39,420 nucleotides of DNA from Cyanophora paradoxa CCMP329 (lineage: Eukaryota > Plantae > Glaucophyta). The notes beneath the pieces were generated by a model. It was not told the origin of the DNA. It did not search any database and saw nothing but the letters and a program-made list of their open reading frames with translations. The stretch lies in assembly GCA_004431415.1 (NCBI GenBank), contig QPMI01000025.1, positions 1 to 39,420 of the forward strand, in the 5' to 3' direction. The translations under genes and the position numbers were made by a program. Shown here piece after piece: positions 4,311-22,755 of the stretch (positions are counted from its first letter, which is position 1; every line of letters begins with the position of its first letter).

Positions 4311-4332
4311 AGATAGATTGTATTGAGGAAAA

Positions 4333-4348
4333 ATTATTTTCGTATCTA
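4333..4348 (+). promoter_or_regulatory. Candidate element promoter motif ATTATTTTCGTAYCTA
   Basis: 15/16 identical to 16835-16850 upstream of element-2 pPolB. Ends 13 nt before ATG 4362. Confidence 0.5.
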
Positions 4349-4361
4349 CTATTAAAGAGAA

Positions 4362-4689
4362 ATGCCGAATATCCGCAAGATACTCACAGATGATGAAAAA
4401 GCAGAGAAGCTGAGACTGAAAAGGGAGCAAGATGCCCAAAGAAAACGCGAAGCCTATCATAAAAAGAAGGAGGAACGATTATCCCAAGGAGCCGCTACAG
4501 TTCACACACCAGAAGAACTCAAAAAGATTGCCCTCAGACACCAGAGGAAATACAGGGAAAATGAAGAATAATTCGCGAACAGAAAAAGGCGAAAGCGCTG
4601 GAATACTACCACAAGAAAAAAGACGAACTACCCAAGACAACCAAAGAGCATAAACCGGTTGGAAGACCTCGAAATATATCGAAGAATAA
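4362..4689 (+). CDS. Small basic protein with C-terminal AT-hook-like GRPR motif (frameshift near 4568)
   Basis: ORF 4362-4571 continues in another frame as IREQKKAKALEYYHKKK..KPVGRPR (GRPR at 4661-4672). The YHKKK motif occurs twice. Confidence 0.55.
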
Positions 4690-4905
4690 ATTCTCGATCG
4701 AAACAAATTTTGTAGAAATCGATTTGATCGGAGGCAAAAAAATGACAGCTTTTCTTCCTCTTTTTTAAAACTGTACCTATATATCGAGACAGTATCCCGA
4801 CCCAAAACTACTTAAGGACTTGGCAAATAATAGGATATATATAAAAGACAATTCCTCCTTCCGAAATTATTTTCTTCGTTAAAGGTAGAAGTCCCCAAAT
4901 CGAAA

Positions 4906-7498
4906 ATGAACAAAATCGAGAAATTCGCCACCCCTGTTGAAATGCTACATTCCTTAGTACTCTCATTGGTGATCGCAACAAGGTCACCCATGTATTTGAA
5001 TTCTGCCGAAGATGCCCTTGAAGCCATTGATAATAGCAAGGTTAAGACCTGGGCTGAATGCATTCAACCTGAGCAAGTGACCAGAGTTTACCTGGACCTG
5101 GATAAATCGCTGATTTGAAGGAGAACATTGCTGATAACTATGCTGAGGCGGAAACTGTTGTAAGAGAGATGAGAGATAAGCTATGGAAGCGATCTGGTAC
5201 CACTTCTATTAACGATATTGCTGTTGCAGTTCGCCATAGAAGGGTTTATTTGATTAAGGAGGATGTCACCAAGTTCAAGATTTCAGCCCACTTTATTATT
5301 AAATCGCTTGCATGCAAACATGAAGATATCCCCAAGCTTTTCAAAGCGATGGGATTGGTGAAAAATGAGGATTATGACAGTGGAGTTTACAGCTCCACAC
5401 AGAACCTAATCTGCCTCAATTGCTGCAAAGGTGAGACTCTGGATGCTCAAAATAAGTCGAAAAAAGATGTTGATAAAAACGTTTGCTTTAAGAAATTCGT
5501 TGACTGTGACAAAGTGTTAATGCGAAATGAGGACTTCTTTGTATCTTACTTCTCAGCTACTACTAAACTTGTGGATGAATCAAATATTTCTGCATTTGCA
5601 AATTATACTCCTGAGCCAAAACCAGTTAAAAAGGAGCCAAAAAGTGATAAAGTGAAGACTGAGAAGGTAGAAGCTGAAAAAGACACTGAACCCGAAAATC
5701 CTGTTACTTTCGAACTGCTACAAAGTGTTATAATGGGTCTCAATGCTGAAAGAGCCAGCGAGTATAAGACTTGGATTGATGTTGGACTGGTCATCATCAA
5801 TGTTGGGGAAGACAACAAATTTACCCCTAAAATGCAGGCTGAACTCTTCCACCAATTCTCAGAACAGAGTGACAAGTATGATTATGATGAATGCCAGGAA
5901 AAGTTTACACAGCTTCGCAGAAGCAAGAAGAAGGCTGAGCCTGGCAAAGTGTTGACCTTCAAATCCTTGGTTTATTGGTTGAGCAAAGATAACAATGAGC
6001 TTTTCAAGGAACTCTTCCCCAAAAAGTATGCATTCCTACCAGAGGACACAGATGAAATCGATTACAAGACTGCAAGTATCCCTCCTTTGGCTGAACATTA
6101 CAATGTGCATAAGAGGTATTTCAATGCTCGCATGCATCATGTTGAAAATGTTGGTTGTGTGATGCTCTGGGATGAACAACTACTTTGCTGGATGCCCAAA
6201 GACATTGGAAAACTGTCTACAAAGCATTTCCCCCACTTGATGCATAAGGTGATTGTGAATGAGGGGACAGATAATGAGAAAGAGAAATGGGAGCAATCAT
6301 TTAGGAAATGGATTGTGGATCCAACAGCCACAAGATCAACTTACATGGATTTCCTCCCACCTCCTGCTACTCTCAGTGCAAAATGCAAGTCTGTATTTAA
6401 TCTCTATCCAGGAATGAAGGTCGACCATCAGCAATTCGAAAATGCTCCAGAGGATGTAACTGCTGAGATGATTAAGCCTTTCCTTGATCACTTGTTCTTA
6501 ATGTCTGGTGAGGATCAAAATACCTATGAATATCTGTTGAAATGGTTTGCCCACATGCTGCAAAAGCCTGGGGAACTCAATGGAGTATCCTTAATCTTCA
6601 TTGGTGAACAGGGAACTGGTAAGAATGTGTTGGTTGATACTTTCCAAAAGAAGATACTTGGAGATGCCCTGAGTTATGCAACTGGTAAGCCAAAAGAGGA
6701 TCTGTTTGGTCGATTTGCCCACAATAGAGAGGATAAGATCTTGATTGTTGTGAATGAAGCCTCAGGCAAGGACACATTCGAAAATAATGATATGCTTAAA
6801 GATCTCATTACTTCTGATAAGATTGTTATTGAACACAAAGGGATAGATTCATACACAAAAAGCAACTTTGCCAGGATTATATTCACCAGCAATAACAACA
6901 TTCCAGTTAAAATTGAAGCTGGAGATAGGCGATTTGTGGTTGTTGAAGTTAGTAAGAAATTCGCAAAGGATAGGTCATACTTCCTTCCACTTGTAAAATG
7001 GCTTAATGATCACTGCAATATTCGAAACATTGCCCACTATTTGAGAACCAAAGTTGAATGTGAGGATGTGAACTGGATTGCTGATAGACCCTTACAAATA
7101 AATACTATTTAGCCCAGCAGGTGTGCGCTCCAATCATCCTTATGTTCACTAAGTGGCTTGTGGATCGAGGCTTAATTTCCGAGAATAAATGCAAGTCTGG
7201 TAGCCTTGTGGAAACCTGGAAATGGTTCCAGGAGTTCATTACCAGCAATAAATATAAAAACGATTATAATAGTCGCAGATATTATACAGAAATGCGAAGT
7301 GTTACATATATCCAAGTGAAAACTACAAATGGTAAACAATACTATCATTTCCTATTCCCACAAGTATTTGAGGAATTCAGAAAGATGAAGCTTGTAGATG
7401 ATGAGACTATTGAGGAAGAAGCTAATCCAAGGATGAAACAGGACCTACCTGCTGCTGATCCTGATGCATCAGATTATGATTCTGATGTTGAAGTTTAG
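4906..7498 (+). pseudogene. AEP primase (PrimPol-like) - PriCT-2 - SF3 helicase; one frameshift near 5115 and an in-frame TAG at 7110-7112
   Basis: AEP motifs RVYLDLD, KISAHF and YDSGVY. PriCT-2 motif YKTWIDVG..FSEQSDKY. Walker A GEQGTGKN, Walker B IVVNEA, motif C IIFTSNN and GDRRF. ORF 7121-7498 is in frame after the stop. Confidence 0.85.
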
Positions 7499-7508
7499 GT
7501 TTACTCAA

Positions 7509-7689
7509 AAGTGGACTCACAGTTGACTCAAATTTATCATAAAAGACCCAAACAGTCTTTTATTTATGGTTTATTTATCGATTAGGTTGACTAAGTGGGG
7601 GAGTTGACTCATTTTTTCACAGATTCTAAAAGAGGACTCTGCCCTAAAAAGAAATAAAAAGTGCCTCAACTCCACCCACTAAGTCAACC
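7509..7689. repeat. Iteron/inverted-repeat module (GT[G/T]GACT), candidate replication origin
   Basis: AAGTGGACTCA..GTTGACTCA, then GGTTGACTAAGTGGGGGAGTTGA (7585-7607) and its near reverse complement TCAACTCCACCCACTAAGTCAACC (7666-7689) around an A-rich spacer. Lies immediately after the primase-helicase stop. Confidence 0.75.
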
Positions 7690-7740
7690 AAAAAATGATT
7701 TAAGAGATAGAAAAATATATTTATATGTAACTAGTAAGAA

Positions 7741-8145
7741 ATGGCTGGAACAGATCATGATTCTGGATCGATCTATATGATTGAGAGTCAGGAAATGAAC
7801 AAAGTCTACATAGGAAGAACCTCACAGCCACTTCAAAAAAGATGGAGACAACACAAATCAGGTCAAATGCCATCTACAGCAGACCTATGCAAGGCTTCTG
7901 ATGTGAAGTTCTCAGTCCTGTATTCAAGTAAGAAGGGTGGGCATGAAGACCTAATGAACAGAGAAGCATATTACATGTATCTCTTTGAACCTTGGATAGT
8001 CAATTTACAAAAACCGAAATCCCGATTTAGGATTAATAGGTTTTGCGATTCCATTCAGAGGAAGCCAGTGGATCCATTAAAACATTTTAAATTGCGTTTA
8101 GAACATCCTAAAATAAAATATCCCCTTAGAATAGGAACAAGTTAG
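7741..8145 (+). CDS. GIY-YIG endonuclease
   Basis: SIYMI...VYIGRT..LQKRWRQH..REAYY..VN matches the GIY-YIG pattern (Y, YIG, R, H, E, N). Confidence 0.85.
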   Translation: MAGTDHDSGSIYMIESQEMNKVYIGRTSQPLQKRWRQHKSGQMPSTADLCKASDVKFSVLYSSKKGGHEDLMNREAYYMYLFEPWIVNLQKPKSRFRINRFCDSIQRKPVDPLKHFKLRLEHPKIKYPLRIGTS

Positions 8146-8150
8146 GAATA

Positions 8151-11100
8151 ATGCCCCGAATTACCAACAAACTCATAAGGGAGAAGAAATGGGAACTCAT
8201 GGGATTGCTGGGAACACTTTATGCAGCCCATGAAATTACAGAGGCTGAATATGACCGGGAAATAGATTTAATTGCAAAGGGCAGACCCACTTTAAGCAGA
8301 TTAACCAGAAAAGCAAATAACCTATATGATAAAATTGAAACCTTGGATGAATTGGATAGGCTTAGGCAAATAGAACCAGATGCAGAAGATGGAACAGCCA
8401 TGAATGAATTATATCGCTGGCTCACTTACAGAGCCAGAAGGGAAGTTGTTGTAGATGTGATTGAATTCCTGGACAGAATTGCTACATCCCTTCCCAATCG
8501 ATTAAAGCAGGGTTTAGATCAATTCAGGGCAATCAAGGTTCGCTTGTCTTTTATCTGCAAGTTCGTTAAAGTGAGCAATCCACAGGTTTGGATATCGAAA
8601 TACATTTACAGTGATTACTTTGTATTAACCAGGTCGAGAAATATTCGAACTGAGCTGAATAAAGCAGCCCAAATGTGTCAGGAGCAGATGAATGTGGTTG
8701 ATAGCTATCGCTTAGAAAGAATTGAAATACTCAGAGTGGCTATTATGAGTTATGCTCCAACTGGTGGATGCTTTCTACAAACCCCAGAGTGGATTGCTAG
8801 GAAGAGAGCCACAGTGAATATTCGAAATATAGATGATTCCTGCTTCGAAAATGCGATTTTAGCCTCGATTTACAGAAAATCTATTAACTCTCATAAGAGG
8901 AATGAGCTTTCACAATATCGCAAATGGAAATACTCAGCAATCGCTTATAATCCGCTGGCTCTCAATTTCGACAATATCCCATTCCCTGTTGCCTGTGATG
9001 CTGAAATAATTGATAAATTCGAGGCTCAAAATGCAGGCATTAGCATTAATATATTCGGAATCGATGGAGAGGTTGTTTATCCCCTGCATCAATCCAGTTA
9101 CCCAGGCAGAAAGCATAAGGTTAATCTCATGCTGATATTTGATGATGAAGGGAATGGTCATTATATTACAATCATGTCCCTTTCAAGATTATTGAAAGTA
9201 AACCATGAAACATACAATGATCAGAAGTTACACTACTGTGACACATGCTTATCTCGATTCAGGTCTGAGGCTAAACTCACTGCTCATGTGGACTCAAATA
9301 GATGCATTGATTGGAGACTCTCAAAGGGAATCACACCTAAACCTGAGACCACCATAGAGTTTGGACTGAAAAACCTCAGGAAAACTGTTTGGCTTCCTGT
9401 TGTGGTTTACTGCAAGATTGAACATAGAAGCATCCCCATTGATGCATCAAAATCTAAGAGGGAAGTCTCAGCAGTCAACCTGAGAGTAGTCACTGGGCAG
9501 ATGTTCAGGAGTTTCGATTTGAGGGTCAGGATCCAATGGGAGGTCTCTTTGAATGCTTGGAGTCCAAAGCAAGAGAACTAATCGATTTCCTGTTTACCAA
9601 CATTCCTATGAATGAACTCACAGATGAGCAGAAAGCAATTTACAGAGCTACCAAACACTGTTACCTTTGCAGTGAGAGGTTCACTAAGGAGAACTTCAAA
9701 TGCAGGGATCATGATCACCACACAGGTCATTACATTGCACCTGCATGCAGAAACTGCAATCTCCATAGGAGAATCTCAAAGCAAACAAAAGTAGCAGTGG
9801 TTGTTGACCAAATGGATGACTGTGGGACATTCATTTTCAGAAAAATAGCAGGCATGGGTGATAAAAAGCGAATCGAAATCCTTTCGAAAAACTTTGATCA
9901 ATACCTTTCATTGCAATGGGTCTTTACAAGTTCATTGATGCAAGTAATTTTATGGAATTTGGGGCTGCTGATGTAGATGAGTTAATGGACAAATTCCAAG
10001 CCTTCAGAAGGCTTTCACACACAGTATATGGATTGGACCCAGTTCATTATGTATCTGCACCTGGGTTATCTTGGGATGCTATGCTTAGGACCACCAAGGC
10101 AAAAATAGAGCTTATAAGTGATGTAGAGCAATACGAATTTGTTGAGAGGGGAATCAGGGGTGGCTTTGCAACAATGCCTTGTAGGTATGCTGAGGCTGAT
10201 GGTGAAAACTCCCACATTATGCTGTTTGATGCTAACAACTTGTATGGCTACTGTTTGAGTCAGCCAATTCCAGTTGGTGATTTTAGATGGGAGACCGAAT
10301 TCAACCCACAAGATAACAGATCCAGTTTCCTAGAAGTTGATCTGGATTACCCAATTAGGCTGTTTCTAGATCACAGTGATTTCCCCCTAATTATTAACAA
10401 GAAAATAGTAGAATATGCGGAATTATCACAATATCAAAAGAGCCTATTAGATCTCTCAGGAGAAGAGCTTGATAAAACCCCAAAGCTAACTGCAACCTTT
10501 GGTTCTGTGGCAAACTATGTGATTTCTGAGCCTCTTCTGCAATATCTGTTGGACAAAGGGGTGAAATTAAAGAAAGTTCACAGGGTCCTATCATTTACTG
10601 TGGCTCCTGTAATGAAACCCTACATTGAGCTGAACACTGAGATGAGAAGGAAAGCAGTGAATAAATTCGAGGCTGATTTCTATAAACTCATGAATAACTC
10701 AATCTATGGGAAATGCATTGAATCTTGCAGAGGTAGATCTGTGGTTAAGATTGCAAACAGTGAGAAACTGTTTATGAAATATGCAGCCTCTCCATTGGTG
10801 AAATCAACCAGCCCCATAAACGAAAAAGCAGTTGCCTTTGAGTTTTACACAAAGCATGTGAAACTAGATAAGCCTGTTGCAATTGGGGCTTATGTTTTGG
10901 ATGCTGCCAAACTGTATAATTACCAATTCTTTTATGATACTGTAAGGACCCAGTGGACAAAAGCCAAGTTACTATTCCATGATACTGATTCCTTTTGTCT
11001 ATATATCGAATCTAAGACCCTCCAAGAGGACCTAGATAATATATCCTATAATCTGGACCTAGGGGGATCCAACAGAATGACCCCAGGTAAATACAAAAAT

Positions 11101-11394
11101 GAGATGCCAGGTTCTGCTATATTGGAATATGTGGGTCTGAGAGCCAAAGTTTACAGTTTCAGAACTGCTGAGATTGAGAGAAGTAAGCTCTCTGGGACTT
11201 CAACTGAGGAACTCCAATTTAATGATTTTAAGCAGTGTTTATTTGCAGGTATAAGCAAGACTGTGACTGCCAAGCAGAAGAGAAGGGCAGATCACACAAT
11301 AATAGATACTGTAAGTAGAAGGGTTGCCCTAAACTGCTTTGATGCAAAGAGATACATCTTACCAGATGGTATTAATTCTGTTCCTTTTAATTAA
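8151..11394 (+). pseudogene. Protein-primed family B DNA polymerase with N-terminal OTU-like Cys/His region, Zn finger and EndoVII-like insert; at least two frameshifts (near 9500 and 9915)
   Basis: Three ORFs (8151-9581, 9536-9976, 9916-11394) are colinear with the intact element-2 PolB. Motifs: NIRNIDDSCF, GHY, CDTC..H, CYLC..DHDH..ACRNCN, IRGG, DANNLYG, KLMNNSIYGK, HDTDS, RAKVYS. Confidence 0.9.
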
Positions 11395-11397
11395 GAG

Positions 11398-12782
11398 ATG
11401 CCAGCAACTGGAAGAATAGTTAGAAGAACCACTGAGCAACTGCAAGGTAACCTACTGCCCATCACAATTCCAAAGGAGGAAAAGGGGAATCTCGAATTGT
11501 AAAAAAGTCAGAGATGAAAGAGCTTGTCCCAGTAGAGATCCCAGTTGCTATTGCAGTGAAAGAAACCAGCAAGATTGCCAAGAGATTCTATGATGTGAGA
11601 ACTGGTTACAAAGGGCTTCAAGCTATGAGGGCTGAGTTACCTGATGAATCCTATAAGCAGTTGCAAGAGTTCTATAAAAAACAAGAGGTAGTTCAGATCA
11701 ATGCACCAGCTATATCTAGGAAGAGAGATCCCATGGTCCCAATCAGGCAACCCCTTGATACCTATGTGATTGATTTGCTCTTTTTCCCAGCTTATAAGAA
11801 ACAAAACAATGGCTATGATACCTTTATGACTGCTATGGAATCAACACTGAGAACTGGGTATATCATACCTATAAGAGATAAATCAGCTCTCACTACATTA
11901 GCTGCATTTAAGCAACTTGAAATGAGAGTGGCAAGACCCATAGTAAAAGTTCAATCAGATGCTGGGAGTGAATTCCAAAATCGAATATTCCAGGAGTATT
12001 TATCTAGTAAATACATAGAACACCAAGTGAGTGGAACTGCTGACCATAGAAGCCAAGGTCGAATTGAAGCCTTTAACAAGCAGATTAAGAGACTGATCAC
12101 AAACTACTGCATAGCTAATAACACAGCTAGATTCTTTGATGTGTTAGGTGATATTGAGTATAATTACAATAATACAGTTCACTCAGCTACTAAGATGAAG
12201 CCAGGTGAAACTACAGAGGAGCATTACAGGTATATAGTGGGATTAGAAGATGAGAGATTCAAGAAATCAATAGCTTATCTTGATACCATGCAGCCTGGCA
12301 TGTTTGTTAGAGTGAAAGTTGAGAAGAACCCCTTTGCTAAACAGGGTAACAATTGGTCTAGGATGGTTTACACAGTTGATAGTAGGGAAGGCTTTAAGTT
12401 TAAGCTAAGGAGTCCCACTGGTGAGATCATAGATAACAGGTTTGCATTCCATGAGCTGTTGCCTGTGAATGCAGTTGAGTATCTGGAAACACCTACAGTG
12501 GATGCCTTGGAGCAAGCTAAAGAGGAAGCCAGGGTTGATGCTGCTATAAGGAGAGAGGGCATTGAGGCTGCTAATGAAGTCCCAGATAAGCCTTTGATAG
12601 AAGCTAGAAAGGAGAAGACTGGCAAGGTTAATAGGGAACTCAAAAAGCTCACTATAGCAGGGACACAGAAACTTTCAGAAGTGAATAGCCAGAGATGGTA
12701 TAATGACTTTCAGACTACTAAGGAGTCATATACAGCCCCTAAACCTCAAAGAACACTAAGAGAAAGGACCAAAACTAGCTAG
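11398..12782 (+). CDS. RVE (retroviral-like DDE) integrase, Polinton type; true start probably ATG 11398 with a frameshift near 11490
   Basis: DDE triad in VIDLLF / QSDAGSEF / IEAFNKQIK, then YNNTVHSATKMKP and an SH3-like VRV..F.K..NWS segment. 11398-11513 aligns with the N-terminus of the element-2 integrase (RR.TE..LPI.IP.EE..RI.KKS). Confidence 0.9.
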
Positions 12783-13158
12783 TTTCATAGCCGAAAACTC
12801 GTTTTTTCCAAATATATGTATGTGTGATATACATATATGCATATGATATACACATCAACGTGTAGATCTTCTCAAGCGCTTCACAACGCTATGCAGAACG
12901 CTGCAAGTTGACTATCTGGTGATGAGATACAAGCGTTTGAAGATGCCGATTATCGATTTTTCGAGATTTCGGAATGATGCATCATAATGATGTAATAATG
13001 ATGTATCATAAACATATAACATATATATATCGCCGTGATCGTCATGATCTCCCGAGTTCGATGGTGTGTCATATATATCATATACATTTGCATCGTCATT
13101 ATGACATCATTTCGTAAAATTACACGTCCGTCATCGTCTTTTTCCGCAGCGAACAGAT

Positions 13159-13359
13159 AAGTGAACAGTTAAGGAGACAACTATTGTAATAGTGGACTGC
13201 AACAACAATTGAAAACAAGATCTGTGGGAAAGCTATTGAAAGACAATGAAGCAAATTGCGAACAATTAAGTGAACAGTTAAGTGGACACCTGTTGGGAGC
13301 AGGCAGTGTCTACTCGTTTATCGTGAAACGGTGTCCACTTAACTGTTCATTTAACTGTT
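13159..13359. repeat. Subterminal AAGTGAACAGTT repeats with a 30-bp inverted repeat
   Basis: 13261-13290 (AACAATTAAGTGAACAGTTAAGTGGACACC) versus 13330-13359 is a reverse complement with 2 mismatches and a 39-bp spacer. A further direct copy lies near 13159. Confidence 0.8.
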
Positions 13360-13530
13360 GACGAAAACCCATGCATTATGACATCATATCATTAAACCCC
13401 ATACAAAACACTAAAATGCATGTATCTCTTCACCAACTCATCATCTTACAAAGATAAAAACAGATTCGGAATCCTCTTAACGAGACCAGCGTGACTATGT
13501 AAGTATCATAGGCTCAATAATTCATATGTT

Positions 13531-14420
13531 AATAAGCATCTCCCCTTCATTCCCCCTATTATATAATATTTATATTAAAGTGGACTCAAGGTTGACTCAT
13601 ATTAATCGTAAAAGTAGTAAAAGTATATGGATTTTGTTACGAATTCAATGCAAGGGTTGACTAAGTGGGTTGAGTTGACTCAAATTTCACAGAAAATATT
13701 TGGGACCTAAAGTTTTCTAAAAAGGATTTCAAAAAATGTGTCAACTCCCCCCACTTAGTCAACCCTGACCATAAACAGTAAGGATTTGAGCTAACATGTA
13801 TCACAAAGTGAACATTTTGAGTCCACTTAGAAGATCCACCTAACAATTTAGAGTCAAATTTACTTGGGAATTCGATTTGTATGAAAAAGTGAGTCCACCC
13901 TGACCATATTCAATAAGCATTCCTCTTAATCCCCTTGTTTATATTTACATTGATTAATATTTAATACTAAGTGGACTCATGGTTGATTCATATTAATCGT
14001 AAAAGGAGTAAATGTATATAAAAATGTGACCATTTCAATGCTAAGGTTGACTAAGTGGGTTGAGTTGACTCAAATTTCAGAGGAAATTTTGAGATCCAAA
14101 GAATATTCTATAAAAGATTTTGAAAAATGTGTCAACTCCCCCCACTTAGTCAACCCTGACCATATACAGTAAGCATAAGAACTTAAATGTATCACAAAGT
14201 GAACATTATGAGTCCACTTAGAAGATCCAATTTTGAAATATAAGTTGATTTTGCTTGAAATTTCAAAGTTGATCTAAAAGTGAGTCCACCCTGATTGATT
14301 ATGGTAACAAAGTTGACTAAGTTGACTAAATTGAGTCATCTTAAGAAATTCAAGGAGACTAAGAGTTCAAAATGTTTATGAAAAGTGAGTCAACTTAGAC
14401 CACTTATGGTAACAAAGTTA
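13531..14420. repeat. Two diverged ~390-bp tandem units (13531-13903, 13912-14294) plus a degenerate tail, each containing the GTTGACT iteron/IR module
   Basis: GGTTGACTAAGTGGGTTGAGTTGACTCAAATTTCA occurs at 13655 and 14045. GTCAACTCCCCCCACTTAGTCAACCCTGACCATA occurs in both units. Offset is 390-391 bp. Confidence 0.9.
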
Positions 14421-14455
14421 AATATTTAATTGATTTAATAGGAAAAGAACATGAT

Positions 14456-14682
14456 TTAATCGAATTTATTGATATAATTCCGATTAGATTCATTTAGGAT
14501 TCAATTAAGATTAATCGAAGTTATAGATATAATTCCGATTAACTACAATTAAGATACAATATCGATTAATCGAGTTTATCGATATAAAATCGATTAAATT
14601 AATTGAAAATGCATTTAAAAATATGAAAATTCATGTGAAAATTCAAATAAATTAATCGATTTTATTGATATAACATCGAATC
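14456..14682. repeat. AT-rich quasi-palindromic 31-bp motif, three copies at 55-bp period plus a fourth abutting the hairpin
   Basis: TTAATCGA.TTTAT.GATATAA..(T/C)CGATTA-like copies start at 14456, 14511, 14566 and 14652. Confidence 0.8.
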
Positions 14683-14755
14683 ACACATATGAATATTCAT
14701 ATTTTAATCCTGAGGCGGAACGCCGAGGGATTAAAATATGAATATTCATATGTGT
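14683..14755 (+). other. Terminal fold-back hairpin of element 1 (28-bp perfect arms, GGCG-GAA-CGCC cap)
   Basis: ACACATATGAATATTCATATTTTAATCC (14683-14710) + TGAGGCGGAACGCCGAG + exact reverse complement (14728-14755). Confidence 0.92.
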
Positions 14756-16419
14756 CCTGTCCAGATGTGGAAGCGCTGGTCTTTGTTGCCCTTCCCAGAG
14801 AGGGCACCTGCCAATGTCCTCACAAGGAATTTGCCAGTCTCTTGATCTTTGAATGGCTCATACACGATTTTCTTGATTTCTTCCATGACATTCCCATCAA
14901 TCATAGGGGCATATGGATAGCCACAAGTCCTACTGACATACTCATCAGCTTTGGCTGGGCGAAAGACCTTATTTTGAAGGTCATAGACTCCATTGGTAAA
15001 CCCAATCAGCTCCTTAGATTCATCCATACTGGCAGCTATTTCAGTGTCAGCAAAGTGAGCCTTGGCCTCTTTGATGATGGAATCTTTGAATCCACATTTC
15101 AGGAGCTGTTTGGAAATTTCAAGGCATTTCTTGGCATTCTCCTCATACTTTGAGCTTTCATCTGGATCAGCAGCAGCTGAACGAGTGTTTTCCATTGCCT
15201 CCTTCATAAAAAGCTTCATGACATCAGTGGAAAGCACTTTGCGCAGTGTATGGGGTTCCTTTTCAGCTCTCCACAGTCCAGTGAGCTTATTCCTGACAAA
15301 CCAGATGTCTTTTTGATTGGCATCATAGCGGAATTGGTCTTTTTGTGTGTGGTACAGGACTTCAGCCACATTGTAATGACCCCCATTTGAAGCAATGGCA
15401 TTTTTAATGGCCTGCTTGAGGTCTCCCTTATTGGTAAACAGCTGAATATATAGATCCAGATTATCAGCTTTGAGCCAATAGACAAGAGAAGCATATGCCA
15501 ATGGCTTTACTGAGCTACCTTTTTGGAAGCTCTGCCAAGCCTTGTCACACGCCTCAGCCCTATACTTGCTGCTCTGTTGGCTGAATTTGTGCCAGATGGC
15601 CAGTACTTTGTCCTCAGGCATTTTCTTGTCTTTCATAGTGCTTGTCAGGGCCAAGCCAACATTAATCCAGTCAGCATAGCCATCAGCTCGTTTTTCACTG
15701 AGTCCCATCACAAGCTTTTCTAGCTCTTCAGTGGTGATGATTTCGCTGGAATAATCATTATTTTTGGGCAGCTGCTGGGCAGGCTCCTCCTTCTCTGGAA
15801 GAGTGAGCAGGGCCTCCTTGCCAGTGAGAAGCTGGACAAAGAAATCAGTGTCCTCATGGGATGTTAGCTTGGTGAACACAGTGTTCCAGCATGGTTCCTC
15901 ATAGGTGCTGCTCTTGTCAGCAAGAGCCTTCTCTTTACAGCACCCAAGGCACACAAGCGCCCTGTTGTTGTTGTAAACAGATGGATCATAGTCCTCATGA
16001 GGCTTGAGCCCAGCCCTCTCAAGGAAAACAGGGAAATCCCTGTAGATGCCATGAAGGGTGGTACATACCATGTGGGCACTCACTTTGTAGCATGGATCCT
16101 GTGTGTCTTTTTTTATCAGCAGCCTTGATCTGGTGGAGATGGCAATGGTGCTGATGTGGACACCAAGTGCCTTGGCCAGCTTTTCAGCCTTGGAGTTAAT
16201 TAGCCCAAGTCCCTCATCATCAACCTCATCAACAGGCAGAACCTGTTCGAAATCAATGTAGAGCTTGGTGAATTTATGGCCACTCAAGTACTCAGCCATG
16301 TGCTTGTTGCCTGAGGCAATCAATTTGAGTGCCTCAGTGACCCTGATGGTCACAGTGCTGGCTTCGCGACTGCCAATGATGCTTGTTAGGAAGGTGCCAA
16401 TGATGCTGGTGGATGCCAT
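14756..16419 (-). pseudogene. AEP primase - PriCT-2 - D5_N - SF3 helicase, truncated at the start of Walker A
   Basis: AEP motifs KLYIDFE, KVSAHM and YDPSVY. PriCT-2 YADWINVG..WHKFSQQSSKY. D5_N LIGFTNGVYDL..FRP. Reading stops at FHIWTG, where G.G.NGK is expected. The final HI* codons come from the element-1 hairpin. Confidence 0.88.
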
Positions 16420-16533
16420 TCTACTATAGGGTGAGATAATTATTTCAGTGAACTATACCCTTAAGTACTTTTCGAAAAAAGGAGTAACTCAAATCAATTT
16501 TTCGGACCCCCCTCCCCCCTGCCCCCTGCCCCC

Positions 16534-16725
16534 TCACACATAGGGATCCCGCTTTCTCGGCCGCCCCCTCCTGTCTGGGGTCGCCTCCTCAAACAGATAC
16601 CTGATACACAGGAGAGCCCCAGCCTTGTATGTGCTGACCCTCACGTATGTTTTGTGGAGCTCGCGAAACTCTGGATCGTTTTGAATCCTGCGCTTGATGT
16701 ACCTCATTTGCTTGGTGTACGCCAT
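16534..16725 (-). CDS. 63-aa basic protein with AT-hook (RRGRPRK)
   Basis: MAYTKQMRYIKRRIQNDPEFRELHK...RRGRPRKRDPYV. AT-rich leader upstream of ATG 16725. Confidence 0.55.
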   Translation of the reverse strand: MAYTKQMRYIKRRIQNDPEFRELHKTYVRVSTYKAGALLCIRYLFEEATPDRRGRPRKRDPYV

Positions 16726-16834
16726 TGCTGGATGTGTTCCTCTTATAGTATAGTTGAGATTTCTTTTTAAATAGGGATCGCGGGGTTTATTCTCATTGAG
16801 CGCTGCGAATTTTCCACAATATACCCATTTAAAG

Positions 16835-16850
16835 ATTATTTTCGTACCTA
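16835..16850 (+). promoter_or_regulatory. Candidate element promoter motif ATTATTTTCGTAYCTA
   Basis: Followed by TATATAAG and ATG 16874. Matches 4333-4348. Confidence 0.5.
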
Positions 16851-16873
16851 TATATAAGTACAACCCCCCAACC

Positions 16874-19800
16874 ATGCCCCGCCCCAGCCACTACCAAATT
16901 AAGGAGCTCCAGGACAAGATTCTCGGGAATCTTGCGTTCCTACTGGCCAATCACTCCATCAGTGAAAGCGAATATGAATCATACATAAGCCAAACCAACA
17001 AGAAGCTCAAGGGGCTTCAAGCTCTCAATCGAGAGCTATTAGGGAAAATCGACGCCCTTGATGAGACTGATCGCCTTGGCCACATTCAAGTCGAACAAAC
17101 AACCACAACTCAAGTCAGAGGAGATGAATACACTACCTTAATAAATGAGCATCGTGCTCTAAATAATAAATACATCGATTTCACAATCAGGGCTCAGCAC
17201 CAGATCCTGACCACTCAAGAGTTTATAGACACCTACTCTGAGGAACTCCACACAAGGCTCCAAGATGCCATCAATTCACAGATGTCGATTAAAACTCGCT
17301 TTACATTTGTCTGTCGCTTTTCGAAGGCCAATAATTCGAGAGATTTCATAACGAAACATATCTACAGCAGCTATGCCATAATGACAAGATCTCGAATCCT
17401 CACAAAAGAGACTGCTAAACTTGCCAAGGAATGCCAGTCGCAAATTAATGTCACAGATAGCTACAGATTAGAGAGCATCCAAGCCCTCAGGGTCATTGTT
17501 CTCTCCTTTAAACCCATCTCAGGAGGTGCTTTTATCCCACTCCCAGAGTGGCTAAAAAATAAACGAGCTATTGTCAATGTCAATAACAAGGACAATAGAT
17601 GCTTTGAGTATGCTATCCTTTCTTATATTCACAAGGACGAAGTAAATAGCCACAAGCGCAATGAGACTTCCCAATACAGGAGGTGGTTCAAAAAAGAACT
17701 GAATTTCGAGGGCATTGAGTTTCCTGTAAAGGCAGATGCTGATACTATTGATCTCTTTGAAAATCTCAATCCAGCGATCTCTATTAATATTTACGACCCC
17801 TCTAACTCTACAGAAGAAATTAATCTACTCCACAACAGCTCCTCAAGGAACAGGAAACACCAAGTGGATCTGCTGCTAATTACAGACGAAAATGGTAACA
17901 GTCATTATACCACAATATTCAGCATGTCCAGAGTCTTAGCTAAAAATGATAAGCAGCGACTCCATTTCTGTAAAACCTGTTCCAACCACTTCAAGACTGA
18001 GGAGAAGCTTCAATCCCACATTCAAAGCAAACGTTGTGTGGATTGGAAGACAAGTGCTGGAGAGACCCCAAAACAACCCACATTCATTGAATTTGGTCTT
18101 AAACATCTCTCAAAGACTGTATTCCTCCCCGTGATTGCCTATTGCTATTTCGATTATGAAACAGATATTTCTGGTATGTTCAAGATCAAATCAATCTCAC
18201 TGACAGCTCTTCATAATAATAGAGTAGTACTCACTAAAACCCCCTCCAACATCTTTGAGCTCCTGAGTACCCTCGACAGCACAGCCCCAGAGCTATTCAA
18301 AGCCCTATTTACCAACATCCCAATGTCACTGACCAAAGAGCAGAAACGTACCCATTACCTTGCTAAAACCTGCTACATCTGCCAAGGTGATTTCACCCAA
18401 GACAATTATAAAGTGAGGGATCACGACCACCAAACTGGCGATTTTGTAGGCACTGCTTGTCGCAAATGTAATCTCCACAGACGCACCAGCAATCTCACCA
18501 AGATTCCCATAGTGACCAATGATCTGTCCCTATCTGGAACGCAGATATTCAAGGCAGTCGCCTTAAATCCCGAAAAAAGGGTGGAAGTCCTCGCGAAATC
18601 GTTTGACAACTACATGTCGATCACTTGGGGTTGCTTTAAATTCATTGACATCAAAAACTTTATTGATTATGGCGTCCAGAATGTCAATGACCTTCAAGAA
18701 AAGTTCCAGCTTTTCCGCCAGAAATCACACAAAACTTTTGGGATGGATGCTGCCCACTATGTCTCAAGTCCAGGGCTTTCGTGGGACAGCATGCTATCGA
18801 TTACCAAGCCCAAAATCGAACTCCTCTCCAACCTTGATATGTACAACATGGTTGAAGGCATGATCAGGGGAGGCCTTTCGATTATGAATCATAAATATGC
18901 CAAAAAGGAAAGGGACAGCCACATTATATATTTGGATGCCAATAACCTATATGGTTATGCCCTGTCCCAAAAGCTACCCCTCTCGAATTTCCAATGGCAC
19001 CCAGAACCCTCAAATTACGACCTGTCATCAGCAGAGGGGGCCATCTTAGAAGTTGACATCCATTATCCCCAGCACCTCCATCAACTCCACAAAGAACTGC
19101 CTCTTGTCATCAAGAGAACAGAAGATGGGCTACAAGCAGCCTGCGAAGACATATCCAACTTTGTGGTGTCGAAACCTTTGCTCCAATTCATGGTAGCGCA
19201 AGGCTTAAAGGTCACCAAAATCCACAGGGTGCTAACATTTACACAGGCTGCCTTTATGAAGCCCTACGTCGAATCCAATGCCCAAAACCGCAGAGCAGCC
19301 CCTTCCAAACCCGAAAAGGACTTCTTTAAAATCATGAACAATAGCCTTTTCGGCAAAACCATTGAGAAAGTGAGAGGAAGGTCTAATGTCAAGATTGCCA
19401 CCAACGAAAAGCAATTTATGAAATACGCCAGATCGCCCCTACTCAAAGCAGAAACAAGACTAAGCGATTCAGCAGTAGCCTTCGAAATGCTACAAAAAGA
19501 TGTCAAGTTAGATAAGCCCATAGCAATTGGGGCAGTTGTTTTAGATCTTGCCAAGCTGCGCCTATTTGATTATTATTATAACACCATCAAGCGGAAATGG
19601 CCAGACTGTAAACTGCTTTTTACTGATACAGATTCGCTTTGCCTTCAAATAAATTCGAAAACTATAGCAAAAGACCTACAAGACATTGATACCCACCCCA
19701 CAGAGCTTGGCAAGTTCAAAGATGAGTTTGAGGGCAGAACCATTACTGAATATGCTGGGGTAAGGCCGAAATGTTACAGCATTAAAACAGGTGATGAGGA

Positions 19801-19969
19801 AATAAAAAAACTGGCAGGTGTTTGTAAGGAGACCATTCAAACAGATCTGTCTTTCCAAGATTATAAAGACCATGTGCTCCACCAAAAACCCAAGCAAATC
19901 GAAATGACTGTCCAAAAGAAGCTTGAAAATGAGACCTACAATGTGAAGATGTCAAAGATTGCTTTCTAA
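16874..19969 (+). CDS. Protein-primed family B DNA polymerase (uninterrupted), OTU-like/Zn-finger/EndoVII-like modules, degenerate exonuclease
   Basis: Start MPRP.. at 16874 aligns with element-1 MPRI... Motifs: NVNNKDNRCF, SHY, CKTC..H, CYIC..DHDH..ACRKCN, IRGG, DANNLYG, KIMNNSLFGK, TDTDS, RPKCYS. Confidence 0.93.
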   Translation: MPRPSHYQIKELQDKILGNLAFLLANHSISESEYESYISQTNKKLKGLQALNRELLGKIDALDETDRLGHIQVEQTTTTQVRGDEYTTLINEHRALNNKYIDFTIRAQHQILTTQEFIDTYSEELHTRLQDAINSQMSIKTRFTFVCRFSKANNSRDFITKHIYSSYAIMTRSRILTKETAKLAKECQSQINVTDSYRLESIQALRVIVLSFKPISGGAFIPLPEWLKNKRAIVNVNNKDNRCFEYAILSYIHKDEVNSHKRNETSQYRRWFKKELNFEGIEFPVKADADTIDLFENLNPAISINIYDPSNSTEEINLLHNSSSRNRKHQVDLLLITDENGNSHYTTIFSMSRVLAKNDKQRLHFCKTCSNHFKTEEKLQSHIQSKRCVDWKTSAGETPKQPTFIEFGLKHLSKTVFLPVIAYCYFDYETDISGMFKIKSISLTALHNNRVVLTKTPSNIFELLSTLDSTAPELFKALFTNIPMSLTKEQKRTHYLAKTCYICQGDFTQDNYKVRDHDHQTGDFVGTACRKCNLHRRTSNLTKIPIVTNDLSLSGTQIFKAVALNPEKRVEVLAKSFDNYMSITWGCFKFIDIKNFIDYGVQNVNDLQEKFQLFRQKSHKTFGMDAAHYVSSPGLSWDSMLSITKPKIELLSNLDMYNMVEGMIRGGLSIMNHKYAKKERDSHIIYLDANNLYGYALSQKLPLSNFQWHPEPSNYDLSSAEGAILEVDIHYPQHLHQLHKELPLVIKRTEDGLQAACEDISNFVVSKPLLQFMVAQGLKVTKIHRVLTFTQAAFMKPYVESNAQNRRAAPSKPEKDFFKIMNNSLFGKTIEKVRGRSNVKIATNEKQFMKYARSPLLKAETRLSDSAVAFEMLQKDVKLDKPIAIGAVVLDLAKLRLFDYYYNTIKRKWPDCKLLFTDTDSLCLQINSKTIAKDLQDIDTHPTELGKFKDEFEGRTITEYAGVRPKCYSIKTGDEEIKKLAGVCKETIQTDLSFQDYKDHVLHQKPKQIEMTVQKKLENETYNVKMSKIAF

Positions 19970-19980
19970 TCCCAATATAG

Positions 19981-21351
19981 ATGTCATCAAAGATCACACG
20001 CAGACAAACAGAGTACGATGTGAGTATATTGCCAATCCCAATCCCTCAAGAGGAGAGATGGGGTCGCATTCAGAAAAAGAGTGACCTCAAAGCTTTAGTT
20101 CCTGCGGATATCCCAACTGCCATTGCTGTGCCTCACTTGGATCCCTTAGCAAGGACATTCTATGACACCAAGGTAGGATTTAAAGGCCTGGCTTCATTGG
20201 CCAAAGAGCTTCCAGATGTGCCAAGAAAGACAATCCGTAGATTCTATGATGCCCAAGAAATCAACCAAATAAATAAACCCCTCCCATCTGCCAAGAAGAC
20301 TGCCTATATCCCAATAAGACAGCCACTCGATACATTCGCTATTGATTTAGTCTTCTTTCCCTCATATAGCAAACAGAATCAAGGCTACAACACGTTCCTC
20401 ACAGCTGTAGAAAACACCACCAGACTGGGATTTATAATTCCAATGAGGGGCAAGACAGCAGAAGTCACACTGGAAGCATTTAAGGAGCTTGAGCGACAGG
20501 TTCCACGTCCAATTGTGAAGATACAAAGTGATGCTGGGAGCGAATTCCTGAACAAGGCATTTAAGGACCACTTAGAAGCCCAGATGATTGAGCACCAAGT
20601 ATCACAGGTTGGAGATCACAATAGCCAAGGCCGAATAGAGGCCTTTAATCGCACAATAAAGAAGCTAATTAACTCATATTGTATAGCGAATAACACTGTA
20701 AAGTTTTTCGACAAGCTCCAAGATTTTGCCTACAACTACAATAATACCATCCACTCAGCAACAGGGATGAAACCAGCAGAGACCACAGAGGTACATGTTC
20801 CCCTCATACTCGCAAAAGAAAACGAGAAATTCATGAAGTCAATTGAATATCTAAAGGACTATCCAGCGGGAACCCACGTGAGAACTAAAATAGAGAAGGG
20901 TCCATTCGCCAAGCAGGGCAATAATTGGAGCCGCGAAATATTTACAATAGAAGGAGTGGAGGGGTTCAAGTTTAGATTGAGGGACATTGCCGGAAAAATG
21001 ATTGATCGACTTTATGCCCACTACGAATTACAGAAAGTGGAAGCCGTGGAGTTCTTGGAAGCCCCATCAATAAATGTCATTGAAGAGGCAAAGAAAGAGG
21101 CCAGAACAGAGCGACTGTTGGCCAGAGAGGGGATTGAGAGGGCTCCAAATGTGCCAGATAAACCATTATTGGAGGACAGAGCAGGGAAGAAGAAGAAACA
21201 GGGGAGAGAGTTGGAGAGATTGAGGGTGGCGGGAACAGAGAGATTAGCAGGGGGGGCAGAGGCAGTAAGGTGGTATAGAGATTTCTCGAATTCAAAGGAG
21301 ACCTATGAAGCTCCAGCAATTTCCACGAGATCAAGGAGGAGGGCAGGATGA
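19981..21351 (+). CDS. RVE (DDE) integrase, Polinton type, intact
   Basis: AIDLVF / QSDAGSEF / IEAFNRTIK triad, YNNTIHSATGMKP and SH3-like C-terminal region. Full-length homologue of 11398-12782. Confidence 0.93.
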   Translation: MSSKITRRQTEYDVSILPIPIPQEERWGRIQKKSDLKALVPADIPTAIAVPHLDPLARTFYDTKVGFKGLASLAKELPDVPRKTIRRFYDAQEINQINKPLPSAKKTAYIPIRQPLDTFAIDLVFFPSYSKQNQGYNTFLTAVENTTRLGFIIPMRGKTAEVTLEAFKELERQVPRPIVKIQSDAGSEFLNKAFKDHLEAQMIEHQVSQVGDHNSQGRIEAFNRTIKKLINSYCIANNTVKFFDKLQDFAYNYNNTIHSATGMKPAETTEVHVPLILAKENEKFMKSIEYLKDYPAGTHVRTKIEKGPFAKQGNNWSREIFTIEGVEGFKFRLRDIAGKMIDRLYAHYELQKVEAVEFLEAPSINVIEEAKKEARTERLLAREGIERAPNVPDKPLLEDRAGKKKKQGRELERLRVAGTERLAGGAEAVRWYRDFSNSKETYEAPAISTRSRRRAG

Positions 21352-21357
21352 GACATC

Positions 21358-21540
21358 TGTAAAGGTTGTTAAGGGTTGTTAAGATTGTAAAGGGTGTAAA
21401 GGGTGTAAAGAGTGTAACGGGTGAACGGGGTGAACGGGGTGAACGGGGTGAACGGGGTGAACGGGTTGTTTGTATAAATTCCCGTGAGAAGGCATTTTCC
21501 TAAGAAAATATACAAAGAACCCGTTCACCCCATTCACCCT
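21358..21540. repeat. 9-bp tandem iterons (TGTAAAGGG-type grading into five GTGAACGGG) plus 23-bp inverted repeat
   Basis: GTGAACGGG x5 at 21421-21465. 21454-21476 versus 21509-21531 is a reverse complement with 1 mismatch and a 32-bp spacer. Confidence 0.88.
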
Positions 21541-21661
21541 GCTGGTGCCAAACTCATGTGTTCAATACCCCAGAGGGGGCCAACATACTGGTGCCAAAAA
21601 GACAAGATTAATACCCTAAGACCTGAAATAAATGCTTACTACCCTAGTACCTGAAACGCGC

Positions 21662-21736
21662 ACACATAGGGATACCCCTGATCCAAGCCTGTAGGCCGAA
21701 GGCCGGAGGGCTTGGATCAGGGGTATCCCTATGTGT
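21662..21736 (+). other. Terminal fold-back hairpin of element 2 (28-bp perfect arms, GGCC-GAA-GGCC cap)
   Basis: ACACATAGGGATACCCCTGATCCAAGCC (21662-21689) + TGTAGGCCGAAGGCCGGAG + exact reverse complement (21709-21736). Confidence 0.92.
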
Positions 21737-22047
21737 GCCGACCCCCGGGCAGGTGATCCTGGCGGGCGTCTCGGGCATGATGGGCTTCATCTCCTTCCAC
21801 GAGCTCGTCCCGACCGCCCAGCGCCACATCCCCCCCATGCACGCCTCCCTCGCCGTCGTCTCGGGGATGGCCGTGATATCGTTCTCCGTGTTTTTGCTAG
21901 GAATGTCATCTTAGCCCGCGTGTCCCGCCCCCGCACACCCTCCTTCCCGCCAGACCGGTACCGCCAGACCACTAGCAGCCTAAGTAACGGACTATCGCAA
22001 CTGGTATTCATTTATTTCAGTCGCTACGAAGATGTTCTATTCTACAA
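21737..22047 (+). repeat. 311-bp direct duplicate of 25131-25441 (end of last intron, last exon and 3' flank of ZIP gene)
   Basis: Identical by eye from GCCGACCCCCGGGCAG to GTTCTATTCTACAA. Offset is 3394 bp. Confidence 0.95.
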
Positions 22048-22755
22048 TGCGCACATCCTGTCCTTCCAATGAACACGCTTATCGAGGTATGCGCGTCGCT
22101 CGCGGAGCCCTTGCAGAGTGCGACGTTGCGTCAGGTGGAGAACACCGCAAACGGGAACAAGGTTGTCGTTCGCGTCAACGATCGCGGCCCTTATGCGGAT
22201 ACGCCAGAGGGAGACCCGCGAATCATCGATCTGTCCCACGGCGCCGCCAAGTACGTGCCGTGCTGACAGGTGTCACGCAAGTGCTCACGGTCCTCCTCCG
22301 CAGCCTGCTCAAGATGCTCCGGTCCGGAGTCTCTCCCGTTAAGCTCCGTGTCCTTCGGTGGCCGGAGAGCATCGACCGCGTGCGGGGGGTCGAAGCGTAC
22401 CGCCAGGTCTGCCGCCCGATCAGCCGGCCGCCGCTGCGCCACTGCTGATGCAGCCCTCGCGTAGTGGGTGGTGCAAGTTGGCTCCTTCGAAACACAAAAG
22501 CACGCGGAGATGCACGTGGCGGCGATGCAAAAGAAATGCCCGTGGGCCAGTGAGCTCTTCATGGTCGACCGGGCCCCGGCTCTCAGCGCCACAACGTCGT
22601 TACCGCTCCCCAGGCAAGCTTCTTTTCTATTTCCCCAGTTCAATTGGATCGCCGGCCTGACGGCATCGCAGCCCGATAGCGCAGCGTGCTACGAGCTCGC
22701 GGAACGGTTCAAGCAGGCGGGCGTCAAGACTTTGGTCACTAACCTCCGCAAATGA
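22048..22755 (+). pseudogene. rlpA: Spliced RlpA-like lytic transglycosylase (DPBB + SPOR), 5'-truncated
   Basis: Removing GT-AG introns 22087-22134, 22251-22303 and 22407-22464 gives CAHPVLPMNTLIE-VENTANGNKVVVRVNDRGPY..RIIDLSHGAANLLKMLRSGVSPVKLRVL..WVVQVGSF. The N-terminal ASWYG/TA.GE part is absent. Confidence 0.8.

Follow-up and report, generated by a model that had tools for sequence, protein, structure and literature searches.

The closest described counterparts of the system reported here are the mavirus-like virophages and the group 1 pMVRE elements, which pair a family B DNA polymerase of the protein-primed kind (pPolB), built of terminal protein (TP), vOTU and palm domains and lacking an exonuclease, with a separate superfamily 3 (SF3) helicase, often of the DUF5906 type, and which share an rve integrase, a GIY-YIG endonuclease and integration in protist genomes (PMC11161782, PMC13215967). 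The loss of the mavirus exonuclease and the gain of a separate SF3 helicase have been read as compensation, a reading extended to Polinton-like viruses (PLVs; PMC11161782 section 10). Here we describe two abutting Polinton-like elements in contig QPMI01000025.1 of the glaucophyte Cyanophora paradoxa CCMP329, in a stretch of 39,420 nucleotides hereafter called the window. Element A extends from before the window start to 14755 and element B from 14756 to 21736, so that the left ends of both lie outside the window. Each encodes a pPolB (TP, vOTU and polymerase motifs) and an rve (DDE) integrase, as expected of a Polinton/Maverick; in each the pPolB has lost its exonuclease and is accompanied by an archaeo-eukaryotic primase (AEP) with PriCT2, and each ends in a fold-back hairpin. 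The SF3 protein of mavirus carries no recognisable primase (PMC3671162), whereas A and B carry an AEP with catalytic motifs; further differences are that the pPolBs described here are closest to those of Endonuclease VII-containing Polintons and that an SF3 ATPase domain is seen in A only. Our preferred reading, which we put at a probability of about 40%, is that the proofreading-less pPolB remains the main replicase, initiating at the ends with help from the helicase, while the AEP would prime the displaced strand and pPolB would complete a folded 3' tail.

The two polymerase genes are as follows.
8151 to 11394, + strand: pPolB of element A, in three pieces (TP, vOTU, exonuclease remnant with Endonuclease VII finger, polymerase)
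16874 to 19969, + strand: pPolB of element B, uninterrupted, 1031 aa, without exonuclease motifs or the last ~25 aa of its relatives

A protein search with pPolB returned 675 matches, and among the best 120 only P0001 was close (49%, full length), the remainder being Polinton-type pPolBs at 32-39%, many with an Endonuclease VII domain. In B, A and P0001 the ExoI DxE motif is replaced by YCYFD, YCKIE and YAQI, respectively; the ExoII Asp is gone from all three, and the segment carrying KxYPY/ExoIII is deleted, with about 105 residues missing and a span from ExoII to DxxHY of 70-71 aa versus a median of 177 in aligned relatives. The alignment comprised B, 120 proteins and 39 long open reading frames (ORFs) from 93 loci, with five partial rows set aside. 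All four exonuclease carboxylates are kept in 149 of its 153 other rows, and the four exceptions are three partial sequences and one with an ExoII D to N change. A, B and P0001 form one long branch (SH-aLRT 100) in a quick tree of 51 rows, which sampled 25 random members of the 119 protein matches plus the long loci and did not include mavirus. Judged from these sequences, the loss is old and common to A, B and P0001. Because the pPolBs here are closest to those of Endonuclease VII-containing Polintons, it also looks independent of the mavirus loss, mavirus being outside the tree. Polintons with pPolBs of this kind, presumably those labelled 'group 2', resemble A and B in the zinc finger plus Endonuclease VII finger, the adjacency of pPolB and rve, the A32-like ATPase and the terminal repeats. 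They differ in their intact exonuclease carboxylates and in the absence of matches to the primases of the window (0/93 loci), and Polinton ends, which we take to be AG...CT, differ from the ...ATGTGT and fold-back found here.

The rest of the polymerase has been retained. Motifs A, B and C, TPR2, the vOTU Cys/His and the Endonuclease VII-like finger are present in A, B and P0001, with TPR2 and all polymerase motifs conserved in all three at about 50% identity; TPR1 is likewise retained, although partly missing in B. A predicted model of the B pPolB (predicted local distance difference test score, pLDDT, 60.6) superposes on phi29 polymerase over residues 418-965 (Z 12.7, root-mean-square deviation 5.8, 399 aligned), which is also its top Foldseek match (E 1e-12). 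Residues 95-215 match the Y-family LF/PAD, i.e. the TP fold (Z 8-9.4), and residues 222-353 match OTU (Z about 7). The LF/PAD fold has been equated with the terminal protein (PMC11161782). In phi29, processivity comes from TPR2, and the template tunnel is formed by TPR2 together with the exonuclease domain (PMC4974454). The Endonuclease VII-like finger of B (18330-18480, pPolB residues ~485-534) keeps a D-H-x-H motif, which is found in 144 of 160 aligned pPolBs. We take this D-H-x-H plus Asn pattern to be that of the T4 Endonuclease VII active site.

Both elements also encode a primase-helicase.
4906 to 7498, + strand: AEP-PriCT2-SF3 helicase of the DUF5906/NrS-1 type, element A, in three pieces (Pfam DUF5906 1.5e-21, PriCT_2 1.7e-9)
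14756 to 16419, - strand: AEP-PriCT2-D5_N primase-helicase, African swine fever virus (ASFV) C962R-like, element B, cut at Walker A (Pfam PriCT_2 and D5_N; C962R E 2e-7)

The A helicase matches the NrS-1 primase-helicase 6k9c (E 7e-16) and has the motifs DLD, SAH and DSGVY, and the AEP motifs DxD/E, SAH and hD occur in both elements. The AEP of B was assigned because its features in the Atlas match AEP_C962R clusters at 0.95 (183 features; 69% of the cluster carries the family), and that of A through its 34% identity to the AEP-PriCT2 region of B. Structure prediction did not help to confirm the domain, as the AlphaFold2 model of the AEP region had a pLDDT of 46 and no Foldseek match. A two-row profile gave no PDB match, and no homologue of the primase N-terminus was found among 3,757 candidates. 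Under the shared AEP-PriCT2 the helicase halves differ, being of the DUF5906/NrS-1 type in A and the D5_N/C962R type in B, whose gene ends ...HIWTG at the start of Walker A. The AEP-PriCT2-SF3 architecture and the swapping of helicases under a shared AEP are also features of NrS-1, ASFV C962R and PLVs with an AEP-SF3 helicase alone (10.64898/2026.10.13.758929 section 11); such PLVs are usually without pPolB and paired with tyrosine recombinases, in contrast to the pPolB and rve found here. The original prediction for this stretch had credited both elements with an AEP primase-SF3 helicase and an exonuclease-less, reduced pPolB. The missing exonuclease is borne out in A, B and P0001, and AEP-PriCT2 and pPolB do occur in both elements, but the SF3 ATPase of B lies outside the window and, apart from the exonuclease domain, the polymerase is reduced only in B, by part of TPR1 and about 25 aa at its C-terminus.

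Whether the two replication modules belong together bears on a doubtful alternative, in which pPolB-rve and AEP-SF3 are independent modules and AEP-SF3 is replacing a decaying pPolB with no cooperation between them. Double replicases have been interpreted as transient (10.64898/2026.07.28.741278 section 7; 10.64898/2026.10.13.758929 section 13), the helicase subtype and the gene orientation differ between A and B, a GIY-YIG nuclease gene adjoins the A helicase, and a 13-nt internal copy of the B terminus brackets the small ORF, pPolB and rve of that element; all of this would suit turnover. Yet homologous AEPs (34%) are present in both elements even though their pPolB and rve are only 47-55% identical, and the polymerase motifs are intact despite an old exonuclease loss common with P0001. 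Synonymous composition also co-varies by element: GC at four-fold sites of primase and pPolB is 0.30/0.34 in A (p 0.27) and 0.49/0.53 in B (p 0.36), and differs between the elements (p 3e-4 to 2e-9). This likeness within and difference between elements suggests that primase and pPolB have long been co-resident in each, and that a genome with two replicases need not be transient but can be stable. We rejected the B primase as a recent foreign insert because its four-fold GC matches that of the B pPolB.

Short repeated boxes mark the non-coding DNA of both elements, in the following modules (none assigned to a strand).
7499 to 7690: GT(T/G)GACT(C/A)A boxes converging on AT-rich spacers, element A (fold z -5.1; spacers 71-76% AT)
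13149 to 13359: inverted-repeat module with GTGAAC core, element A (fold z -7.2)
13564 to 14400: two sub-terminal copies of the 7499-7690 module, element A (391-bp period, 82% alike)
14456 to 14706: 55-bp repeats, element A
21358 to 21539: 9-mer repeats (GGGTGAACG x5) and inverted partner across an AT-rich spacer, element B (fold z -5.7)

The core GT(G/T)(G/A)AC occurs 39 times in 2,714 non-coding bases versus 15 times in 14,341 coding bases, an enrichment of about 14-fold (p 5e-20). The first module begins one base after the stop codon of the A helicase and could serve as an origin or as a loading site for the helicase; 13577-13764 resembles it at 69%, and another copy lies at 13955-14294. 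Between rve and the end lie 27 of the 32 non-coding boxes of A. In B, six boxes are found at 213-315 bp from the end and a seventh ahead of the primase; the place downstream of the B helicase that would match the internal module of A is missing, and B shows only a sub-terminal module. This layout fits helicase-loading sites situated mainly near the ends. Four-fold-site skew kept its sign across 7499-7690, with C>G on both sides (p 0.065 for G vs C), although the dominance of coding-strand bias makes this a weak test; in B the skew tracks the coding strand. A role of the boxes as a general promoter motif was rejected, as apart from the module before GIY-YIG just one box (16448) lies directly upstream of a start.

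The boxes are central to a reading that we consider unlikely, in which AEP-SF3, as a primase-polymerase or with host polymerases, fires an internal iteron origin and pPolB only patches 3' overhangs, as in Streptomyces. The module of convergent boxes and AT-rich spacers just behind the A helicase gene would be such an origin, and the helicases resemble the primase-helicases of NrS-1 and ASFV C962R, which have polymerase activity. Against this, the same module stands twice more near the end of A, no skew inversion occurs at it, the B skew follows the coding strand, and the polymerases, though about 50% diverged, keep TPR2 and a complete polymerase domain. The hairpins described below, with their G.A-type mismatches, recall Streptomyces telomeres (PMC4513846), where fold-back 3' ends with such pairing are likewise combined with a TP primer, an analogy for which no homology is expected. 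Streptomyces linear replicons (Tpg/Tap), however, have several palindromes over about 300 nt, a separate Tap, the host replisome and a demonstrated internal origin, whereas each element here has a single terminal hairpin. A fuller version, equally hard to favour, would make this an integrating eukaryotic virus lineage with a Streptomyces-like division of labour, AEP-SF3 firing iteron origins for bulk synthesis and a proofreading-less pPolB with fused TP completing the telomere on a GAA fold-back, and place it as a still extant stage between Polintons with pPolB and PLVs with AEP-SF3.

The right ends of the two elements are alike in structure.
14683 to 14755, + strand: fold-back of element A; 29-bp stem, GA/GA internal loop, 4-bp stem, GAA loop; ends TATGTGT
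21662 to 21736, + strand: fold-back of element B; 29-bp stem, GTA/GGA internal loop, 4-bp stem, C-GAA-G loop; ends TATGTGT

None of 200 shuffles was as stable as either fold (z -9.9 in A and -11.0 in B). All 29 outer pairs form in both hairpins, with 10 pairs changed on both sides and none broken, a count drawn from two sequences that also served to derive the structure. The stem is flush, its 3'-terminal base being fully paired. The G.A mismatches and GAA loop are present on the 3'-ended strand only, and the two strands have almost the same computed energy; G.A-type mismatches and a GAA loop stabilise a folded strand, and the sheared geometry, deduced from the sequence, is not modelled by ViennaRNA. 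Such purine-purine mismatches would give the 3'-ended strand an advantage, which makes it plausible that the 3' end is left single-stranded and finished by pPolB. A 3' single strand, however, is left by plain strand displacement, by replication from an internal origin and by end-initiated replication with a primase on the lagging strand, and the hairpin therefore does not choose among them. The loops have the same orientation in both hairpins (2/2), which is uninformative. As a weak control, 16 long exonuclease-intact loci were scanned: stems of at least 18 bp occurred in 4, none at a demonstrated end, and L001, the sole long locus showing terminal inverted repeats, had no terminal hairpin. 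A metagenome contig that holds two Polinton-like segments has an internal 120-bp palindrome (L101:1226-1342) upstream of its second, degenerate copy of pPolB, at a site that is not a demonstrated terminus.

A flush 3' end is also a ready primer-template junction, and the fold-back might itself prime pPolB in a rolling-hairpin scheme like that of parvoviruses or poxviruses, leaving the TP vestigial and a nuclease (the Endonuclease VII-like finger, GIY-YIG or rve) to resolve the ends. Perfect arms with 10 double changes are as expected if one arm were copied from the other, the TP loop lacks the GSG pattern, and the same model has been proposed for endogenous virophages and PLVs of Halocafeteria seosinensis (10.64898/2026.07.28.741278). 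We nevertheless regard it as distinctly unlikely, given that the TP fold, its Ser/Tyr and the vOTU catalytic pair are kept in 3/3 members and that the DHxH of the finger, present in most aligned pPolBs, is not specific to this lineage. The Halocafeteria elements resemble A and B in their end palindromes, in the combination of pPolB and a D5 primase-helicase in some of them, and in nested insertions. They differ in that palindromes occur preferentially with non-pPolB replicases and double replicases are read as transient; the main text of that preprint is without the word exonuclease. Of the original prediction's remaining claims, GAA-capped fold-backs are indeed found at the right end of each element, and a primase-helicase beside a proofreading-less pPolB, with pPolB plausibly finishing the 3' end, stands. 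The convergent boxes proposed as an iteron module at 7509-7689 are real, but they are not unique, having two paralogues near the end of A, and B has a sub-terminal module only. Bulk replication from an internal origin with pPolB limited to end-patching is not supported, because TPR2 and the polymerase motifs are kept, boxes concentrate near the ends and skew does not invert.

Under our preferred reading of an end-initiating pPolB, the helicase would load at the GT(G/T)(G/A)AC boxes beside AT-rich spacers and unwind for the polymerase, whose template tunnel may have been weakened by the exonuclease deletion. Synthesis would start from the polymerase's own TP domain on a 3'-TGTG repeat, and the terminal ACAC repeat suits initiation by sliding or jumping back. 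The AEP would prime the displaced strand discontinuously, the 3' tail left over at the far end would fold into the GAA hairpin and be filled by pPolB, and rve would integrate the duplex. The internal module of A would be an extra loading site travelling with its helicase gene. Handing over a TP-capped genome to a retroviral-type integrase is a step stated as unknown in PMC11161782 section 6.

Several points weigh against this reading. The box contains TGACTCA and TTGAC(C/T), which we take to be AP-1 and W-box cores, and it may therefore be bound by host factors. A module directly after the helicase, as in A, is typical of P4/SaPI-type replicons. The likeness to P4/PICI-type iteron origins lies in the convergent iterons and AT-rich spacer beside the primase-helicase gene, seen in A only; a single origin bound by the helicase would be expected of such a replicon, and A has three paralogous modules and no skew switch. 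The B pPolB lacks the C-terminal [DN]xKR segment that 141 of 159 others carry. A, B and P0001 all have xDSY in the predicted linking loop, without nearby Gly/Pro, while in relatives Ser occupies the usual column in 140 of 153, mostly followed by Gly, and Gly/Pro near the linking residue was reported in all TP domains examined (PMC11161782 section 6); protein priming may on these grounds have decayed in this lineage. Genomic context comes from two elements of one genome, of which A is broken and B has the ATPase half of its helicase outside the window. In favour of the reading, the window primases matched none of the 93 pPolB-relative loci by tblastn, and the 16 loci of at least 9 kb show A32-like P-loops only; most of the loci, however, were short fragments (77/93 below 9 kb), and with divergent primases such a search can miss distant helicases.

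The co-occurrence of exonuclease loss, AEP-helicase and terminal hairpin rests on these two elements from one genome, as the searches turned up no relative in its genomic context. In viral contigs, neither the alignments of rve and of the primases nor the B pPolB and the A primase as queries retrieved an exonuclease-less relative, and the pPolB alignment and P0001 gave only ordinary Polintons at 30-36%; L111, from the pPolB scans, keeps ExoII/III. Metagenomes yielded no relatives with rve and, with pPolB, 147 loci of which 80 were kept, all ordinary pPolB, and a scan of prokaryote genomes yielded no relatives. The terminal-hairpin pattern matched 17 stretches in viral sequences, none palindromic, and the iteron pattern had no matches. 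Two homologues of rve were found, and P0001, P0121 and P0122 are singleton proteins without genomic context. Terminal palindromes in endogenous virophages and PLVs, some with pPolB plus a D5 primase-helicase, are on record (10.64898/2026.07.28.741278), and the literature covered further includes PMC12721341, PMC11296320 and 10.64898/2026.06.19.733378. In the main text and passages of these sources, whose figures and supplements could hold one, we found no report that joins exonuclease loss, AEP-SF3 and terminal hairpins in this pPolB type, nor one of an end-patching model for Polintons. The parts each have precedent, in mavirus and in 2026 preprints, and their combination in this pPolB lineage is, as far as these sources show, new. 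The lineage is apparently an independent case of exonuclease loss paired with a helicase, here bearing a primase. The replication of most Polintons and PLVs still lacks direct tests; the short defined substrates of this locus (a 73-75-nt structure-conserved terminal hairpin and 6-9-bp boxes) and the uninterrupted pPolB gene of B make protein priming, hairpin priming and helicase dependence each directly testable.

The remaining features of the elements and their flank are listed below.
1 to 2097, + strand: fragmented minor capsid-like (to ~695) and major capsid-like (~752-2097) genes, element A, presumed from motif resemblance and unconfirmed
2210 to 2765, + strand: A32/FtsK-like packaging ATPase in pieces, element A (Walker A GKSATGKS; Pox_A32 E 0.0067, weaker than the curated cut-off)
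3966 to 4765, + strand: small basic ORFs of element A, located upstream of the primase and carrying AT-hook-like motifs (RGRP/GRPR)
7741 to 8145, + strand: GIY-YIG endonuclease, element A (Pfam 1.5e-10)
11398 to 12782, + strand: rve (DDE) integrase, element A, broken near the N-terminus (Pfam rve E 1e-4; D, D and E present)
16534 to 16875, - strand: small ORF, element B, ending in AT-hook-like RRGRPRK
16535 to 16547, + strand: internal copy of the outermost 13 nt of the B hairpin arm (21661-21673; chance about 6e-4 for this 13-mer)
19981 to 21351, + strand: rve integrase, element B, DDE intact (Pfam rve E 2.5e-6)
21737 to 22047, + strand: host flank, identical over 311 bp to 25131-25441 (100% by blastn), where a host gene has the end of an intron, its last exon and its 3' region

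Element A is ordered as capsid-like pieces, A32-like ATPase, primase-helicase, repeat module, GIY-YIG, pPolB, rve, non-coding repeats over 2 kb and hairpin; its start lies before that of the window and thus upstream of 4906, with ATPase and capsid-like remnants at 1-2800. The capsid-like pieces, which resemble minor and major capsid proteins in their motifs, had no match in Pfam or the PDB, and no protease was found within the window. Most A genes, including those for replication, are frameshifted or in pieces, from either decay or sequencing error. Element B comprises primase-helicase (- strand), small ORF, uninterrupted pPolB, rve, repeats and hairpin. Identity between A and B is 45-47% for pPolB and 55% for rve, and the small basic ORFs of A show a weak 13-aa match to the small ORF of B (E 0.039). 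Since the right end of A interrupts the B primase-helicase gene at the start of the Walker A region, A was most simply inserted into B, whose other half would lie upstream of the window. The pPolB ATG of B overlaps that of the divergent small ORF (CATG, 16873-16876), which probably starts further in.

The 13-nt copy at 16535 and the terminus of B bracket a 5.2-kb unit of small ORF, pPolB and rve; it is the one internal recurrence, and a C-rich tract (16506-16534) adjoins it. Neither a matching internal copy in A nor a target-site duplication around the bracketed unit of B was found, and the copy may mark the former end of a module resembling a transpoviron, or may have arisen by chance within coding sequence. 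GC per kb is 32-48% for positions 1-21736 (up to 21000) and climbs to 59-83% in the flank beyond, which together with its introns suggests a protist or algal host. Observed/expected CpG is 0.39-0.41 in both elements (1-21736), with an excess of TpG, versus 1.07 in the host flank, a depletion that could reflect methylation history or avoidance. The 311-bp host duplication (21737-22047 = 25131-25441) starts exactly at the end of B; the duplicated gene is presumably ZIP-transporter-like from its HNxPEG motif, although two pieces compared with Pfam gave no confirmation. Beyond the duplication comes a DPBB_1 (RlpA-like) fragment at about 22090-22260. Host introns in the flank (23900-25300) are short and C-rich, many with GC donors and CCCCG repeats.

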